NCBI GenBank assembly: GCA_016926765.1
Contig: JAFGNY010000234.1
Coordinates: 1 to 30,412, forward strand
DNA length: 30,412 nt
Origin: Bacteroidales bacterium
Lineage (GTDB): Bacteria; Bacteroidota; Bacteroidia; Bacteroidales; FEN-979
Direction of reading: 5' to 3'
Below are positions 3,208-28,417 of this stretch, one piece after another (positions within the stretch are counted from its first letter, which is position 1; every line of letters begins with the position of its first letter). The translations under genes were made by a program, and so were the position numbers. The notes beneath the pieces were generated by a model that was not told the origin of the DNA, did no database searches, and was given only the letters and a program-made list of their open reading frames with translations.

Positions 3208-3246
3208 TTGTTTCTATTTCAGATTTGCGATGTGGATGTACGCCTG

Positions 3247-3269
3247 GACGAGTCATGCCTCGTCTCTAC
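3247..3269 (-). repeat. GTAG-type REP-like palindrome
   Basis: Minus strand GTAGAGACGAGGCATGACTCGTC; stem GACGAG/CTCGTC; same family as 6321-6348 and 15170-15189. Confidence 0.75.
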
Positions 3270-3278
3270 ATTGTCCTC

Positions 3279-6029: not shown

Positions 6030-6397
<368 letters not shown>

Positions 6398-9694: not shown

Positions 9695-11071
9695 ATGGCT
9701 TCTAAAAAATCAAAGAAAAAACTCTGGATTATTATTGCCTCCGTGGCTGTTCTTGCCATTATCATTATCCTGGCCACGATCAAAGGCGGGAAAAATGATG
9801 GGATCAAAGTCTCTGTTGAACTCGTTGCGAAGAGAACGATTGTTCAGACTGTCTCTTCCAACGGAAAGATCCAGCCTGAAACAGATGTGAAGATATCTCC
9901 CTATATCTCCGGTGAAGTGGTTGAACTCTATGTAAAAGAGGGTGACGAAGTCAAGAAGGGGGAACTCCTGGCAAAGATCGACCCGGAGATCTATATTTCA
10001 CAATACGACCAGAGTGTTGCTTCGGTAAATACCCAGAAAGCCAATGAATCGAATTCTGTTGCCCGGCTGGCCCAAATGGAGGCACAGTTTGAAAATGCCC
10101 GGCTGAATTTCGAGCGGCAACAGAAGTTATTTGATCAAAACGTGATCTCTAAAGCAGATTTTGACCAGGCGAAAGCAAATTTTGAGGTGGCAAAGGCGCA
10201 GGTCACCTCCGCCAACCAGGATGTGAAAGCTTCGGCGTTTATGGTTAAAAGTTCGGAAGCTGCACTGAAACGGGCCACGGATGACCTGACCCGGACAGCC
10301 ATCTTCGCACCGAACGACGGAACGGTATCCAAGCTGAATGTCCTGAAAGGGGAGCGCGTTACCGGAGCCTCACAGTTTTCAAGTGGTACTGAAATCATGC
10401 GGCTGGCTAACCTTAACGAGATGGAAGCCCAGGTAGAGGTGAATGAAAACGATATCATCCGGGTAAACCTCGGCGATACTGCATTGATTGAAATAGATGC
10501 CTACCTCAACCGCAAATTCAAAGGAATCGTTACTGAAATCGCTACATCTGCCAATACTACCGGTGTCAGTGTCGACCAGGTAACCAACTTCAATGTCAAG
10601 ATTCACCTGCTGAAAGAGTCGTATGAAGATTTGCTTGACCCTGAAAAACCCTTTTTCAGTCCGTTCCGCCCCGGGATGTCCTGTACAGTGGAAATCCAAA
10701 CGGAAACAGCCTATCATGTGCTAACGGTGCCTATCCAGGCTGTAACTACCCGGGTATCACAGGATACGCTGGATAAACTGAATGCACAAAATGTGGAGAC
10801 GGAGCAACACGATGACCGTGAAATTGAGCGTGTGACAACAAAAAAGACTGAAGAGATCCAGGAATGCGTGTTCATTTTTGACGATGGGATTGCCGGAAAA
10901 CGCGATGTCAAAACAGGGATCCAGGACAACACCTATATTGAGATCAAAGAGGGCCTTTCCGACAGCCTGGAGGTGATCACTGCCCCTTATTCGGTCGTAT
11001 CAAAAACCCTTAAAGATGGCGACAAAGTGAAAAAAGTTGACCGGAAGGATCTTTTTAGCGCAAGCAAATAA
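9695..11071 (+). CDS. Efflux periplasmic adaptor (MFP, HlyD/MacA-like)
   Basis: N-terminal TM anchor, GKIQPE..V.ISP.ISGEV..L.VKEGD.VKKG lipoyl half-motif, I.AP.DGTV, FRPGMS. Confidence 0.92.
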   Translation: MASKKSKKKLWIIIASVAVLAIIIILATIKGGKNDGIKVSVELVAKRTIVQTVSSNGKIQPETDVKISPYISGEVVELYVKEGDEVKKGELLAKIDPEIYISQYDQSVASVNTQKANESNSVARLAQMEAQFENARLNFERQQKLFDQNVISKADFDQAKANFEVAKAQVTSANQDVKASAFMVKSSEAALKRATDDLTRTAIFAPNDGTVSKLNVLKGERVTGASQFSSGTEIMRLANLNEMEAQVEVNENDIIRVNLGDTALIEIDAYLNRKFKGIVTEIATSANTTGVSVDQVTNFNVKIHLLKESYEDLLDPEKPFFSPFRPGMSCTVEIQTETAYHVLTVPIQAVTTRVSQDTLDKLNAQNVETEQHDDREIERVTTKKTEEIQECVFIFDDGIAGKRDVKTGIQDNTYIEIKEGLSDSLEVITAPYSVVSKTLKDGDKVKKVDRKDLFSASK

Positions 11072-11835
11072 TGTCACTTATCCTGGCTCTTGAAACAGCC
11101 ACTCCCGTTTGTTCTGTTGCTCTCGCCCGTGATGGAGAGGTTCTCTCCCTTTCTGAGTCGGCCATCCCAAACGGACACGCAGGGATGATAACACTACTGA
11201 TTGAGAAACTCTTTTCGGAATCCTCGTTGCACTATACCGATCTCGACGCCATTGCGGTGAGTATGGGACCGGGGTCTTATACTGGATTGCGTATTGGCGT
11301 GGCAACGGCAAAAGGTCTTTGCTATGCGCTGGACAAACCCCTGATTGCTATTCCGACGTTGGAAGCGATGACAGCCGGAATGAAACACTACCCCTCCCCC
11401 AGCCCCTCCCCAGTTGCTTCGCATTCGCTCGCAAGGGAGGGGTGTGACGGCCAACTGCCAACTGCCAACTGCCGACTGCTCTTCTGCCCGATGATCGATG
11501 CCCGGAGGATGGAGGTGTTTTGCGCGGTGTTTGATTCGGATCTCAAGGAGATTCGTTCAACCGATGCGGTGATTGTGGATGAGCATTCGTTTGAAGAGTT
11601 GCTGGATCAGCATCCGGTTCTTTTTGCCGGAAACGGATCCGGAAAATGCAAAGAGAAGTTATCCGGGAATCCGAATGCACTGTTTTTGGATCATTTTCAA
11701 CCTTCCGCAAAATTCCTGATCGAACTTGCAGAACAGAAGTTTCGTGAAAACAGGTTTGAAAACCTGGCCTACTTTGAACCCTTCTACCTGAAAGATTTCA
11801 TCGCCGGCAAACCAAAGGTCAAAGGTCTGAAGTAA
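11071..11835 (+). CDS. tsaB: tRNA t6A37 threonylcarbamoyltransferase complex subunit TsaB, with a repeat-derived insertion
   Basis: LALETATPVCSVAL, AVSMGPGSYTGLRIG, PMIDARRMEV, YFEPFYLK; start overlaps the MFP stop (TAATG). Confidence 0.95.
   Translation: MSLILALETATPVCSVALARDGEVLSLSESAIPNGHAGMITLLIEKLFSESSLHYTDLDAIAVSMGPGSYTGLRIGVATAKGLCYALDKPLIAIPTLEAMTAGMKHYPSPSPSPVASHSLAREGCDGQLPTANCRLLFCPMIDARRMEVFCAVFDSDLKEIRSTDAVIVDEHSFEELLDQHPVLFAGNGSGKCKEKLSGNPNALFLDHFQPSAKFLIELAEQKFRENRFENLAYFEPFYLKDFIAGKPKVKGLK
11391..11479 (+). repeat. In-frame hairpin + GCCAACT heptamer insertion in tsaB
   Basis: CCCCTCCC (11403-11410) pairs with GGGAGGGG (11435-11442); GCCAACT x3 + GCCGACT at 11450-11477. Confidence 0.88.
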
Positions 11836-13494: not shown

Positions 13495-14676
13495 ATGGCT
13501 GAAACAAATCACTATAAGGCTCCTGACCACTATCTGGTTGATGATCTGCTCACGGATGAGCACAAGATCGTGAGAAATGCCGTTCGAGATTGGGTTAACC
13601 GGCATGTGAAACCTATCATTGAAGTACAATATGAAAAAGCTCAATTCCCCATACATCTGATCCGTGAAATGGGGCAGATCGGCGCCTTTGGTCCATTTAT
13701 TCCCGAAGGGTACGGCGGCCCGGGTCTCGACTATATCTCCTATGGGCTGATCATGCAGGAACTTGAGCGGGGCGATTCCGGGATCCGTTCCATGGCATCG
13801 GTCCAGTCGTCGCTGGTTATGTATCCGATTTTTTCATACGGATCTGAAGAACAAAAGAGGAAATACCTGCCCTCCCTGGCGACAGGAGAGCTGATTGGTT
13901 GTTTCGGGCTCACCGAACCCGACCACGGGTCCGATCCCGGAAGCATGAAAACCCATGTAAAAGAGATGGACGATCATTTCCTTTTAAATGGCTCCAAGAT
14001 GTGGATCACCAATTCCAGCATTGCCGATGTGGCGGTGGTTTGGGCAAAAGATGAGGCCGGCGTGATCAGGGGGTTCATCGTGGAAAAGGGCTGGGAAGGA
14101 TTCACTGCGCCCGAGATCCATGGTAAGTGGTCGCTGCGGGCTTCCGTGACCGGTGAACTCGTATTTGACAACGTGAAAGTTCCGAAAGATCATATCCTGC
14201 CTAACGTGGAAGGGTTGAGAGGCCCTCTGAGCTGCCTCAACTCTGCCCGCTTCGGTATCGCCTGGGGTGCAATCGGAGCAGCTATGGATTGCTATGATGC
14301 AGCTGTAAGGTATTCTCTCGAACGGATTCAGTTCGACAAACCAATCGGAGGATTCCAGCTTCAGCAGAAGAAACTGGCGGAGGCTTTGACTGAGATCACC
14401 AAAGCCCAGTTGCTTGCCTGGCGAATGGGAGTCCTTCGCAACGAAGGCCGTGTCACAGCAGCACAGATATCGATGGCCAAACGGAACAATGTCGCTATGG
14501 CCCTCACTATCGCCAGGGAGTTGCGCCAGGTTCTCGGTGCCATGGGAATTACCAATGATTTCCCGATGATGCGCCATATGATGAACCTCGAATCGGTAAT
14601 CACGTATGAAGGAACTCACGACATTCACCTGCTGATTACGGGAGCGGAGATAACCGGGATTCAGGCTTATAAATAG
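13495..14676 (+). CDS. gcdH: Acyl-CoA dehydrogenase, glutaryl-CoA dehydrogenase-like
   Basis: GCFGLTEPDHGSDPGSM, LNGSKMWITNS, RYSLERIQFDKPI, ESVITYEGTHDIH (GCDH-type catalytic Glu). Substrate assignment is less certain than the family. Confidence 0.85.
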   Translation: MAETNHYKAPDHYLVDDLLTDEHKIVRNAVRDWVNRHVKPIIEVQYEKAQFPIHLIREMGQIGAFGPFIPEGYGGPGLDYISYGLIMQELERGDSGIRSMASVQSSLVMYPIFSYGSEEQKRKYLPSLATGELIGCFGLTEPDHGSDPGSMKTHVKEMDDHFLLNGSKMWITNSSIADVAVVWAKDEAGVIRGFIVEKGWEGFTAPEIHGKWSLRASVTGELVFDNVKVPKDHILPNVEGLRGPLSCLNSARFGIAWGAIGAAMDCYDAAVRYSLERIQFDKPIGGFQLQQKKLAEALTEITKAQLLAWRMGVLRNEGRVTAAQISMAKRNNVAMALTIARELRQVLGAMGITNDFPMMRHMMNLESVITYEGTHDIHLLITGAEITGIQAYK

Positions 14677-14702
14677 CGAAATAGCGAAATAGCGAAATAG
14701 TG
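14671..14702 (+). repeat. AAATAGCG 8-bp tandem array overlapping the ACAD stop
   Basis: AAATAGCG x3 + AAATAGTG; the first TAG (14674-14676) is the gene's stop. Confidence 0.9.
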
Positions 14703-14744: not shown

Positions 14745-14752
14745 TACCTTTG
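14745..14752 (+). promoter_or_regulatory. Bacteroidota -7 box upstream of ispG
   Basis: TACCTTTG; it overlaps the track's GTG start at 14752, favouring ATG 14773. Confidence 0.6.
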
Positions 14753-14772: not shown

Positions 14773-16071
14773 ATGTCTGAACACCCCTTCCGACGTTTTC
14801 CCACACGTGTGGTCCCCATTGGCAACTTGCCCATGGGAGGCTCTTATCCTATCCGGGTACAGTCGATGACCAACACCGACACACAGGATACTGAGGGAAC
14901 TGTAGCACAGGCAATCCGGATGATTGAAGCCGGATGTGAATATGTCCGGATCTCCGTACCGGGAATGAAAGATGTGGAAACCCTTCGGAAAATCAAGAAG
15001 GAGATCCGGGATGCCGGATTCACTGCCCCGTTGATTGCCGACGTCCATTTCAAACCGAAAATCGCTGAAATCGCTGCCACGATCGTGGAAAAGGTGAGGA
15101 TCAACCCTGGAAACTACGTTTCAGGGTCAAGGGTCAAGGTTCAAGGGTCAAGGATGAAGGGTCCTGCAGGGACGAGGCATGCCTTGTCCGAGGGCCAAGG
15201 GTCAAGGATGAGCGAAACGAAATCCGGCATCCGGCATCCGGAATCCGGCATCCAGCATCCGGCATCCGGCATCCGGAATCCGGCATCTGACCAGCATTAT
15301 TTCGACGAAATCTCCACCCGACTGACTCCTTTGCTTAAAATCTGTAAGGATCATGGGACAGCAATCCGCATCGGCGTAAACCACGGCTCGCTTTCCGAAC
15401 GAATCATGGATCGGTTTGGAGATACACCGGAGGGGATGGTAGAGTCGGCACTGGAGTTCGCCCGAATCTGTGAAGAGCACGGTTTCCGAAACCTGGTATT
15501 GTCGCTCAAATCCTCCAACACCCGCGTGATGATCCTTGCCAACCGTTTGCTTGTGGAACGAATGAAAGAAGAAAGCATGGATTATCCCTTGCACCTGGGT
15601 GTTACCGAAGCAGGCGCAGGGGAAGACGGGCGGTTGAAATCTGCCGTGGGGATCGGCAGCCTGCTGGCCGACGGGATCGGTGATACAATCCGGGTTTCGA
15701 TCACTGAAGACCCGGAACACGAGATCCCGGTTGCTTACGGAATCCTCCAGGCCACAGGTGTCAGGATCACTCGCACCGAATACATCTCCTGCCCCTCCTG
15801 TGCCCGGACTCTTTTCGATATCCAGAAATCGGTTCAAACGATCAAGGAACGAACCGGACATCTTACCGGATTAAAAATCGCCGTCATGGGTTGTATCGTG
15901 AATGGTCCGGGTGAAATGGCTGATGCACATTATGGATATGTGGGCGCCGGAAAAGGAAAAGTCAACCTTTACAAAGGGCAGACTTTGGTCAAGAAAAATG
16001 TGGATGAATCGGTTGCCGTGGAAGCCTTGATTCACCTGATCAAAGAAAACGGGGAGTGGATAGAACTTTAA
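14773..16071 (+). CDS. ispG: (E)-4-hydroxy-3-methylbut-2-enyl-diphosphate synthase (flavodoxin), with a repeat-derived insertion
   Basis: PIRVQSMTNT, PLIADVHF, RINPGN, RIGVNHGSL, PLHLGVTEAG, GDTIRVS, CPSC...MGCIVNGPGE [4Fe-4S] ligands. Confidence 0.96.
   Translation: MSEHPFRRFPTRVVPIGNLPMGGSYPIRVQSMTNTDTQDTEGTVAQAIRMIEAGCEYVRISVPGMKDVETLRKIKKEIRDAGFTAPLIADVHFKPKIAEIAATIVEKVRINPGNYVSGSRVKVQGSRMKGPAGTRHALSEGQGSRMSETKSGIRHPESGIQHPASGIRNPASDQHYFDEISTRLTPLLKICKDHGTAIRIGVNHGSLSERIMDRFGDTPEGMVESALEFARICEEHGFRNLVLSLKSSNTRVMILANRLLVERMKEESMDYPLHLGVTEAGAGEDGRLKSAVGIGSLLADGIGDTIRVSITEDPEHEIPVAYGILQATGVRITRTEYISCPSCARTLFDIQKSVQTIKERTGHLTGLKIAVMGCIVNGPGEMADAHYGYVGAGKGKVNLYKGQTLVKKNVDESVAVEALIHLIKENGEWIEL
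15121..15290 (+). repeat. In-frame composite insertion in ispG: AGGGTCA array, REP palindrome, (C/A)ATCCGG array
   Basis: 6 AGGGTCA-like units at 15123-15164; GGACGAGGCATGCCTTGTCC at 15170-15189; 3 more units at 15191-15211; 10 (C/A)ATCCGG-like units at 15221-15290. Confidence 0.93.
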
Positions 16072-26180: not shown

Positions 26181-27371
26181 ATGCGAACCGTCAATGATTT
26201 CAACTTCCAGGATAAGCGGGCATTGATCCGTGTTGATTTTAATGTTCCCCTGGATGCCTCTTTCCAGATCACGGATACCACCCGGATTGACGCGGCGATC
26301 CCTACGATCGAAAAAATCCTGAATGATGGAGGTTCTGTGATCCTGATGTCGCACCTGGGCAGGCCAAAAAGCGGCCCTGAAGAGAAGTTTTCCCTGAAGC
26401 ATCTTCTTCCTTACCTTTCGGAAAAGCTGGGGCGACCGTTGAAGTTTGCTGACGACTGCATCGGCCCCTCCGCCGTTGAGCTATCGGCCACCCTGCAGCC
26501 CGGAGAGGTGTTACTGCTCGAGAACCTCCGGTTTTACAAAGAAGAGGAGAAGGGCGATGAAGGCTTTGCCCGTCAGTTGGCCGACCTTGGGGATGTCTAT
26601 GTCAACGATGCCTTTGGTACCGCTCACCGGGCACATGCCTCCACGGCTGTCATCGCGAAATTCTTTCCCGAAGCCAAACTGTTCGGCTTTGTGATGAGCA
26701 ATGAGATCCTCAACATCGACAAAGTATTAAAGGATACACCCCGTCCCTTTACCGCCATCCTTGGAGGGGCGAAAGTTTCGGGCAAGATCGAGATCATCAA
26801 CCAGCTGATGGACAAAGTCGACAATTTGTTGATCGGCGGCGGAATGATGTTCACTTTCATCAAGGCAATGGGCGGCGAAGTGGGCGCTTCCCTGGTGGAG
26901 GATGACCTGCTGGAGCTGGCAAAGAATACGGTGGAGGGGGCCAAGATGCTTGGGGTGAACCTCTATCTTCCACCGGATGCCATTGTTGCTGATGCATTCT
27001 CCAACGATGCCAATAAGAAGACCTGCAGCGCCTACGACATCCAGATCCCCTGGATGGGGCTTGATATCGGGCCGGCTACCTGCGATAAGTTCCGTCATGT
27101 TATCTCGAAATCAGCCGCCATCCTCTGGAACGGACCCATGGGCGTTTTTGAGATGAACCAGTTCGAAGCGGGGACCCGGTTCATCGCTGAAGCGGTTGCA
27201 GAAGCCACTTCCAACGGGGCGTTTACCCTGATCGGCGGAGGCGACTCGGTGGCAGCGATCAACAAATACGGGCTGGCCGATAAGGTCAGCTATGTCTCAA
27301 CCGGCGGAGGCGCCATGCTGGAATATATCGAAGGTAAAGAGCTGCCAGGCATCAAAGCCATCCTCGGGTGA
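26181..27371 (+). CDS. pgk: Phosphoglycerate kinase
   Basis: [60 protein letters not shown]. Confidence 0.98.
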
Positions 27372-28417
27372 CACGGATCCTTCTCAGCCGGACCGACCGT
27401 ATCGGAGATGTTGTTCTGACCCTCCCGCTAGCCGGTGTGCTGAAAAAATACCTGCCCCAAACCACCCTGCTTTTCCTGGGGAAAACTTACACGCGGCCTG
27501 TGATTGAAGCTTGCAGCTTTGTGGACGAGTTCATCGACTGGGATCTCCTTGCAGAGCTCCCCTACCGGGAACAGGTAGCAGCATTCAGGGCATTTCGCGC
27601 TGATGCGGTCATTCATGTGTTTATGAACCGAACGATCGCTAAGCTGGCCGATGCAGCCGACATTCCGGTGAAGGTCGGTTCTGCCCATCGCCTGTTCAGT
27701 TGGCTCTATTGCAACCAGGTGGTGTGGTTCAGCCGCCGTCATTCCGATCTGCACGAAGCTCAACTCAACCTGAAATTGTTAAAACCCCTTGGGATTGAAG
27801 TGATGCTGGAGAGGGAGAGGATCCCGGAATATTATGGATTGCAGGCAGATGCGCGATACGAGATACGCGATACGAGATACGCGATGCGCGATCCAGCATC
27901 CGATATCCGGAATCCGGAATCCGGAATCCGGGATCAGGAATCCCGGTTCCGTCTGATCCTCCACCCCAAATCCAAAGGCAGCGCCCGGGAGTGGGGGCTG
28001 GAGAACTTTTCCCGGCTGATTGAGCTACTTCCGCAAAATAAATTCAGCATCTATATCACAGGGACGAAAGCGGAAGGGGAACTGATGAAGGAGTTCCTGG
28101 AAAAACACCGGGAGCAGGTCACCGATAGGACCGGGAAGATGGATCTATCTGAACTGATGGAGTTTATCAACTCGTGCGACGGAATGGTGGCAGCCAGCAC
28201 CGGACCTCTCCATCTTGCTGCCGCTTCCGGGAAAGTCGCCATTGGCTTATATGCTCCCATGCGCCCGATCCATCCGGCCCGGTGGGCTCCTTTGGGTAAA
28301 AACGCATCCTATCTCGTGCTCGATAAACCCTGCAACGACTGTCGCAAGAACCTGGACTGTCACTGTATGAAGGAGATCAGGGCAGAGGAAGTCGTTGCCA
28401 TGCTCATGAATGATTGA
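27368..28417 (+). CDS. Glycosyltransferase family 9 (heptosyltransferase-like), with a repeat-derived linker
   Basis: Plus strand from GTG 27368 reads GTG ACA CGG ATC CTT CTC AGC = MTRILLS, overlapping the pgk stop (GTGA); [29 protein letters not shown]. The track's minus label is wrong. Confidence 0.92.
27848..27945 (+). repeat. In-frame array of 14 phase-locked heptamers in the GT9 gene
   Basis: GATGCGC GATACGA GATACGC GATACGA GATACGC GATGCGC GATCCAG CATCCGA TATCCGG AATCCGG AATCCGG AATCCGG GATCAGG AATCCCG. Confidence 0.93.

Follow-up and report, generated by a model that had tools for sequence, protein, structure and literature searches.

The gene for the isoprenoid enzyme IspG in a Bacteroidales genome of the lineage FEN-979 (assembly GCA_016926765.1) carries 57 in-frame codons in which two heptanucleotide arrays, one of them split by a palindrome, are read as protein. 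The gene is located on contig JAFGNY010000234.1, of which positions 1 to 30,412 of the forward strand were analyzed; this whole stretch of 30,412 nucleotides is called the window. The repeats originated at the level of the DNA and not at that of the protein. The insert is probably a tolerated nest of simple-sequence repeats (SSRs), which occupies a dispensable and disordered loop of the enzyme and whose reading frame is kept by purifying selection. The ispG loop is one case of a genus-wide settling of repeats in tolerant protein loops.

Anatomy and assembly support of the repeat stretch

The coding sequence (CDS) of ispG (gcpE) was assigned to 14773-16071 on the forward strand, 432 amino acids counted from the ATG at 14773, on the basis of the list of open reading frames (ORFs), the Pfam match, the structure 3NOY, a structural model and substitution rates. 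A GTG at 14752 opens the longest version of the ORF. The repeat stretch extends from 15121 to 15291 and corresponds to ispG codons 117-173. A preliminary description of the window, made from its letters alone, had listed the repeat elements of this stretch, and every one of them was recovered by inspection of the sequence, Tandem Repeats Finder (TRF) and a repeat search. Its 57 codons and their peptide were exact, and only the end, placed at 15290, was one base short.

All elements of the nest are given on the forward strand. The nest begins with the boundary TACGTTTCAGGGTC (15115-15128), encoding Y-V-S-G-S, which is common to the congeners when the loop DNA of all ten is compared in the 7-nt register. 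The first block of the left array (15123-15164) consists of AGGGTCA twice, AGGTTCA, AGGGTCA, AGGATGA and AGGGTCC, and was reported by TRF as 5.9 copies of AGGGTCA with a period of 7 at 15123-15163 (82% matches, score 61). The array is then split by a REP-like (repetitive extragenic palindromic) segment of 26 nt (15165-15190), an inverted repeat whose 20-nt core GGACGAGGCATGCCTTGTCC (15170-15189) is made up of the arms GGACGAGGCAT and ATGCCTTGTCC. The second block (15191-15211; AGGGCCA, AGGGTCA and AGGATGA) is a direct repeat of 15137-15157 with 90% identity. A spacer of 10 nt, GCGAAACGAA (15212-15221), separates it from the right array, 9.4 copies of ATCCGGC with the variants ATCCGGA and ATCCAGC (15222-15287; TRF score 111, 89% matches), which is translated into SGIRHPE, SGIQHPA and SGIRNPA. 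The right boundary, ATCTGACCAGCA (15285-15296), encodes (A)SDQ(H/Q), is kept across the genus and coincides with the start of helix alpha4 in the model. The heptamer arrays are far beyond chance; with one mismatch allowed, (ATCCGGC)3 had 35 matches in the genome and the reversed control pattern had none. With tandem head-to-tail units in the 5-11 nt range, present in 5.9 and 9.4 copies, the two arrays are long simple sequence repeats (LSSRs).

Repeats are error-prone in assembly, and the metagenome-assembled genome (MAG) is fragmented (405 contigs, 2.82 Mb, 70% complete) with a low depth of ~5-7x. An explanation of the insert as an assembly artefact, or of the gene as a decaying copy, would fit these properties of the MAG. 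It is nevertheless hardly credible, and as far as these data go it is already refuted. Contigs from an independent assembler (Logan contigs of run X1) cover 14800-15600 with zero mismatch and no indel, and tile the region exactly in the segments 14800-15084, 15055-15251, 15245-15286 and 15257-15600. Support for the insert, on which the preliminary description had made its proposal depend, is thereby present at the contig level. Run X1 is a sediment metagenome and probably the source sample, and its contigs therefore support the insert but are not independent proof of it. Because of an exact internal repeat of 31 nt (15222-15252 is identical to 15257-15287), these contigs give no independent confirmation of how many units the right array has; the intact reading frame argues that the count is correct. 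Stronger support came from nine other MAGs of the genus, obtained in different studies, which have homologous in-frame arrays at the same place.

As for decay, the frame is intact and the ratio of nonsynonymous to synonymous substitution rates (dN/dS) towards nine congeners was 0.025-0.054, calculated on the flanks of the insert only (333 codons), which points to strong purifying selection on these flanks. One ispG copy only is present in the assembly. A search for HMG-CoA reductase, the marker used for the mevalonate pathway, found none in this genome, which is 70% complete. The decaying copy, feared in the preliminary description together with a second ispG or a mevalonate pathway, was rejected on these grounds. 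IspH is present in the genome, and the low dN/dS, the single copy, the presence of IspH and the failure to find HMG-CoA reductase together suggest that IspG is active. IspF was not found in the MAG at its 70% completeness, and this absence is read as incompleteness of the MAG and not as loss of the pathway. HMG-CoA reductase occurs in one of the ten congeners; the only strong match was in G007 (G007:C110:19070-20215, E 9e-85), where it could be due to horizontal acquisition or to contamination of the bin.

The encoded protein is a complete IspG on both sides of the insert. The Pfam family PF04551 (GcpE) matched residues 11-424 with an E-value of 1.1e-124 over profile positions 1-342 of 343. 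The match to 3NOY (E 2.6e-73) falls into two stretches on either side of the insert, with query residues 8-115 aligned to chain residues 13-116 and query residues 187-423 aligned to chain residues 125-356. The Fe-S ligands C340, C343, C374 and E381 and the motif R109-N114 (RINPGN) were invariant in an alignment of 38 orthologues, so that the catalytic motifs are indeed intact, as had been stated from the sequence. The four ligand residues line up with CPTC...GC...E of 3NOY, and by this homology three cysteines and one glutamate are assigned as the putative cluster ligands.

Structure, frame and history of the loop

In the AlphaFold2 model the protein has the IspG fold, a TIM barrel and a C-terminal 4Fe-4S domain, with a mean predicted local distance difference test score (pLDDT) of 76. 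The best PDB matches of the model were 3NOY (TMt 0.80), followed by 4G9P and 2Y0F. The insert is located in the beta4-alpha4 loop, after the RINPGN strand, in agreement with its earlier placement in a loop of the barrel. Residues 119-167 had pLDDT values below 50 and no secondary structure, and the array-encoded stretch is predicted to be disordered. A helix was modelled at residues 170-194; its first residue, the start of alpha4, falls on the conserved SDQxY boundary.

If either array gains or loses one or two units, a stop codon results at residues 126-189, and only changes of three units keep the frame, exactly as expected in the preliminary description for any change that is not a multiple of three. 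Compensation of one added unit in one array by one lost unit in the other was considered and is unlikely because off-frame stops occur within or just after the arrays. Heptamer changes shift the frame unless they come in threes, and slippage by one unit could thus toggle ispG in a subpopulation, as in the heptanucleotide contingency loci of Haemophilus and Neisseria (see PMC2651432). Such a phase-variation switch is very improbable for ispG. Its off state would be lethal because IspG is present in a single copy and belongs to the only isoprenoid pathway detected. The arrays are imperfect, with 82% and 89% matches, and the X1 contigs have no indel. In two sister species, represented by 8 and 7 full-length conspecific sequences from several samples, the loop length was constant and only point substitutions were observed, which does not agree with the instability implied at first. 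No strain-level variant of the present IspG was found in a collection of 5.8 billion proteins, in which its cluster has one member, and strain-level stability is therefore testable only in the sister species. The arrays are imperfect, currently slow and not a working switch; neither the sister species nor the X1 contigs gave the length variants that characterize a contingency locus, and the target gene encodes a single-copy enzyme of the methylerythritol phosphate (MEP) pathway, whereas contingency loci act on dispensable genes, typically those for surface structures. When folded as a single strand, the right array was more stable than 199 of 200 shuffles (z -2.6) and can form CCGG-based hairpins. 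No such folding was seen for the AGGGTCA array.

The left and right arrays were found in nine of the ten congeners between the same boundaries, TAYNTNNCAGGGTC on the left and ATCTGAYCAGCA on the right, and in the same order, and they were therefore present in the ancestor of the genus. Comparison of the loop DNA in all ten congeners gave the shared layout, with left boundary, left array, variable middle, right array and right boundary. The left-array unit drifts from AGGGTCA through AGGGTCG, GAGGGAC and GAAGGAC to GAAGAAC, the right array is built from CATCCGG or CATCCAG, and the number and mix of units differ in every congener. In the nine congeners with arrays the loop DNA is 207, 198, 255, 219, 189, 156, 129, 132 and 117 nt long, in each case a multiple of 3, and the array-bearing loops have 53-99 residues between NPGN and IRIGVN, with a different length and sequence in each species. 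The ispG nest is thus old, and its units are turned over rapidly. The successive insertions first proposed do not account for it, and the palindrome is the sole element confined to this genome.

One congener, G002, has 23 residues between the two motifs and no array. G002 was nested among the array bearers in a tree of the flanks (support 91/85 for the genus clade and 99/96 for the inner clade), and its short loop is therefore a secondary, clean deletion, which shows that the loop is dispensable. The variability of the loop and this natural deletion suggest that the loop is neutral. An adaptive loop, serving as a tether for a redox partner, as a regulatory or solubility element or as a modulator of domain closure, would fit the retention of an extended form in nine of ten congeners and of a shorter form in most of the family. 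It would also agree with the hydrophilic nature of the peptides and with the orientation of the ATCCGGC arrays inside ORFs, 20 in sense and 5 in antisense although both strands are stop-free. We nevertheless consider adaptation to be improbable. The length (53-99 residues) and the sequence differ in every species, one nested species has lost the stretch cleanly, 20 or more unrelated enzymes contain the same peptides and no order is predicted for the stretch. Furthermore, the IspG enzymes of Aquifex and Thermus, known from established structures, work with a short loop.

Among more distant orthologues the loop forms a series from 19 to 99 residues at one site. The present protein has 83 residues between NPGN and IRIGVN, a count on which the preliminary description was correct. 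The values that it gave for comparison, roughly 20 residues for IspG of the E. coli type and roughly 45 for typical Bacteroidota enzymes, hold approximately; the loop has 19 residues in the orthologue L063 and ~20 in Aquifex IspG (3NOY alignment), and 39-44 residues separate the motifs in most of the other Bacteroidota and members of the family. In the family, loops of 40-44 residues outside the genus are often decayed heptamer arrays. The loop peptide RVTRHASRVT corresponds to (GTCACGC)n, LDAGYWMLD to the reverse complement of ATCCAGC units, and TRF still finds arrays at several ispG loci of the family outside the genus. The bacteria of the genus, the present one included, are uncultured Bacteroidales of lakes and sediments, some of which are labelled Prolixibacteraceae in their records. 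IspG of the family is short, ~380-400 amino acids, compared to ~600 amino acids with an extra domain in other families of the order (comparison of the ispG loci L064-L092 with L013-L063, with the open frames of the long form at 494-665 amino acids). The inserted domain that is typical of Bacteroidota therefore seems to have been lost from the family or never to have been present in it.

The palindrome is private to this genome and was not found in the loop of any congener. Its nearest relatives are palindromes of 28 nt of the type GTAG...CTAC, for example GTAGAGACGAGGCATGCCTCGTCTCTAC on contig C242. They belong to a dispersed family of perfect palindromes of 28-29 nt, GTAG(R)G(R)C...G(Y)C(Y)CTAC, of which 26 near-perfect copies were counted in the genome and 5 in shuffled sequence, with arms of 10-14 bp. 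The family has two or three stem subtypes; copies are present in the window at 6321-6348 and 3245-3270 and on contigs C9, C14, C59, C105, C242 and others. A search with the 20-mer of the ispG palindrome gave 16 matches on both strands with at most four mismatches. The stem GACGAGGCATGCCTCGTC is common to the ispG palindrome and several dispersed copies, and the central stem GACGAGGCATGCCT(C/T)GTC is present in it as in the family. The ispG copy reads GCAG...GAGG, with GCAG in place of GTAG and the 3' CTAC lost, and has only an inner stem of 8 bp and a weak outer stem left, so that the GTAG start and the complete stem of a REP element are missing. Folding of the palindrome did not differ significantly from shuffles (41-nt piece, z -0.66), and its relation to REP elements is based on sequence similarity to the dispersed family and not on folding energy. 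We call the ispG palindrome a putative decayed relative of this REP-like family, which would have landed in the left array. A 21-nt block, AGGNNCAAGGGTCAAGGATGA, is present on both sides of it, and a local inverted duplication of GGGACGA-type units is a possible alternative origin. A composite element of hairpin plus array was rejected as a general rule; of the 26 GTAG hairpins that are well formed, only one has an array within 100 nt. No Y1/RAYT (REP-associated tyrosine) transposase (PF01797) was found in this genome at 70% completeness. Congener G006 has one strong match to PF01797, and four other congeners have weak ones (E between 7e-5 and 1e-3, with scores close to or at the cut-off of 23 bits).

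Repeat nests across the genome

In the 2.82 Mb of the genome TRF identified 679 arrays, of which 223 have a period of 7 and 129 a period of 8. The period-7 and period-8 arrays merge into 336 clusters. According to crude ORF-based gene calls, ~102 of these clusters are contained in ORFs, 103 sit at the edges of ORFs and 131 between genes, compared to 286, 33 and 16 expected from random placement. All of the 20 array-host ORFs tested carry Pfam domains, among them those of DapF, AroA, pyruvate formate-lyase, E2 acyltransferase, tricorn protease, GT9 and TsaB. The peptides SGIRHPA, DKRTSGQA and GTRDEGR recur in unrelated proteins. The array peptides are hydrophilic, with a Kyte-Doolittle value of -0.68 compared to -0.13 for the proteome, and have a high content of R, S, P, H, G and Q.

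Two further genes in the window illustrate the same behavior, with hypervariable nests at sites that are fixed across the genus. The GT9 gene (ORF 27368-28417, PF01075) has a compound in-frame array at 27847-27945, composed of 6.4 copies of GATACGC followed by 5.6 copies of ATCCGGA, and at the same site the orthologues of seven congeners each carry a different stretch that is derived from repeats. The TsaB gene (ORF 11071-11835, PF00814) has 4.3 in-frame copies of GCCAACT at 11450-11479. The TsaB site is hypervariable in all ten congeners and in G006 it reads VSGIRHQAS, an ATCCGGC-type peptide.

Arrays were also observed around ispG. An octamer array of 3.8 copies of AAATAGCG (14671-14700) overlaps the stop codon of the upstream ORF, which is acyl-CoA dehydrogenase-like (13495-14676), and is located ~70 nt ahead of the start of ispG. 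Many family members have an array of 7- or 8-nt units at the corresponding position upstream of ispG. Among distant Bacteroidota, heptamer or octamer arrays flank ispG in L089 (a MAG labelled Mucilaginibacter), L074, L081 and L065/L067, with five arrays within 3.8 kb in L089, so that genomes rich in arrays are found in several separate lineages within the phylum.

The commonest unit of the genome is ATCCGGC, with 27 TRF arrays and 42 runs of at least three units; the unit CGGACAAG is present in 42 arrays. Units of this kind at so many unlinked sites could be due to a DNA-level process that copies shared 7-8-nt units among permissive sites, be it template switching, gene conversion or an enzyme that lays down units, and the ispG nest would then have been overwritten repeatedly from elsewhere, in addition to any local slippage. 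Such copying agrees with the distribution of (ATCCGGC)3, which was present in all 10 congeners, in 9 of 50 genomes from other genera of the family, a patchy occurrence, and in one of 120 other families of the order, with no match for the reversed control. It also agrees with the clustering of arrays, which adjoin 126 times where ~10 times are expected, a 13-fold excess. SGIRHPA-type units at the old TsaB and GT9 nests in some species only point in the same direction, as does the GGCAGT-type (ACTGCC) heptamer array that often precedes ATCCGGC arrays by 10-25 nt (for example on contigs C197, C364, C131, C66, C360, C58 and C81). However, the spacers between these paired arrays are not conserved, and the flanks and spacers of the 42 ATCCGGC runs have no common sequence, with no common ends or target duplications seen. 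No candidate enzyme was identified, convergent drift of stop-free, hydrophilic units is possible, and the ispG array boundaries common to the genus fit vertical descent. For the ispG nest itself, overwriting by copied units is therefore unlikely. That the genus, and patchily the family, has an undescribed process by which a pool of 7-8-nt units (ATCCGGC, CGGACAAG, GGGACGA and others) is copied into long-lived nests, some of them in essential genes, is a slightly better prospect, although a doubtful one. If it were true, loops such as beta4-alpha4 of IspG would be continually rewritten from genomic repeats and not by ordinary substitution and local slippage.

Under the preferred explanation, a tolerated repeat nest, a compound heptanucleotide nest would have arisen at or before the origin of the genus. 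It would since have changed by slipped-strand gain and loss of units, by point drift and by replacement from a common genomic pool of units, and a dispersed hairpin repeat of the GTAG type would also have been acquired in this genome. Lengths that are not multiples of 3, stop codons and harmful peptides would be purged by selection. Out-of-frame variants would be purged because this is the sole IspG copy in the only isoprenoid pathway detected. The surviving DNA would be translated into a hydrophilic, disordered surface loop that is neither needed nor much harmful. We infer slippage as the mechanism. Several observations weigh against this explanation. The loop directly follows the substrate-binding residues on the catalytic face of the barrel, so that it may affect the kinetics, for better or worse. 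Slippage by itself fails to explain the shared units ATCCGGC and CGGACAAG at dozens of unlinked sites, and it also fails to explain the 13-fold clustering of arrays. The constant loop length within the sister species means that present-day slippage at ispG is slow. With regard to expression, the metatranscriptome runs X3 and X4 gave matches to the repeat units only.

The loop is of interest as an experiment of nature, with a series from 19 to 99 residues and a clean deletion, on the amount of non-protein 'junk' that can be accommodated beside the active-site strand of an essential Fe-S enzyme. It also shows that non-triplet microsatellites can persist in a CDS for the lifetime of a genus if selection polices the frame. 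For annotation and family work, such nests explain odd low-complexity inserts with a periodicity of 7 or 8 residues in proteins of Bacteroidales MAGs. The same few units at hundreds of clustered sites could point to a peculiarity of replication or repair in these lineages.

Comparison with known repeat systems

The dispersed palindromes of 28-29 nt, GTAG...CTAC, resemble REP elements and bacterial interspersed mosaic elements (BIMEs), and the ispG palindrome has their common central stem. REP and BIME elements are mobilized by RAYT (Y1) transposases. The ispG copy differs from them in its GCAG start, in its lost 3' CTAC and in being intragenic, and no Y1 transposase was found in the 70%-complete genome.

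The contingency loci of host-adapted pathogens are similar in that a non-triplet repeat within a CDS shifts the frame by a change of a single unit. ispG is unlike them in being essential and single-copy and in having imperfect arrays, and no strain-level variation in length was seen in the sister species.

Heptanucleotides are the commonest class of LSSRs in many prokaryotes, and non-triplet units are under-represented within coding sequences, according to the survey of Mrazek, Guo and Shah (2007) in so far as it is quoted in PMC4679880 and PMC4692102. The arrays described here agree with the quoted part of that survey in their head-to-tail units of 7 (and 8) nt, in the genome-wide excess of period 7, in the diversity of units, in polymerase slippage as the proposed mechanism and in being depleted inside genes compared to random placement. 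They differ from the LSSRs surveyed, as quoted there, in that ~30% of the clusters lie inside ORFs, including those of essential enzymes, and in that the ispG nest has stayed in frame across the whole genus while its units were turned over.

Several families of heptamers have been described, such as the cyanobacterial STRR (short tandemly repeated repetitive) sequences and GGGNATC in Xanthomonas and Nostoc (PMC4692102), and TAACTGA, which is repeated in Beggiatoaceae, in cyanobacteria and in five Bacteroidetes (PMC4679880). As in these families, a few lineage-specific heptamers occupy many unlinked sites with a patchy phylogeny and with neighboring arrays of other heptamers. Their mechanism of spreading is not known (PMC4679880, PMC4692102). 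In contrast to the present arrays, they are mainly intergenic, near start or stop codons, and have been discussed as regulatory or G-quadruplex elements (PMC4679880, PMC4692102). TAACTGA holds stop codons, whereas ATCCGGC and AGGGTCA as found here are stop-free on the sense strand and translated.

A parallel in coding sequence is found in the Rickettsia palindromic elements (RPE), selfish repeats that lie in frame in metabolic genes (Ogata et al. 2000, as far as cited in PMC10969869). In both cases selfish or neutral repeat DNA is in frame in unrelated metabolic genes and is read as an extra peptide, compatible with fold and function. From the account cited, RPE are ~150 bp long with a conserved sequence and peptide, whereas the ispG insert is built from variable numbers of 7-nt units and one hairpin of 26 nt. 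The conserved element of ~100-150 bp and the conserved peptide of an RPE-like miniature inverted-repeat transposable element (MITE) were not found, and the ispG loops of the congeners differ throughout. The ispG case is a combination of features that are known from these systems, in which an essential enzyme has retained a compound heptamer SSR in frame for as long as the genus has existed.

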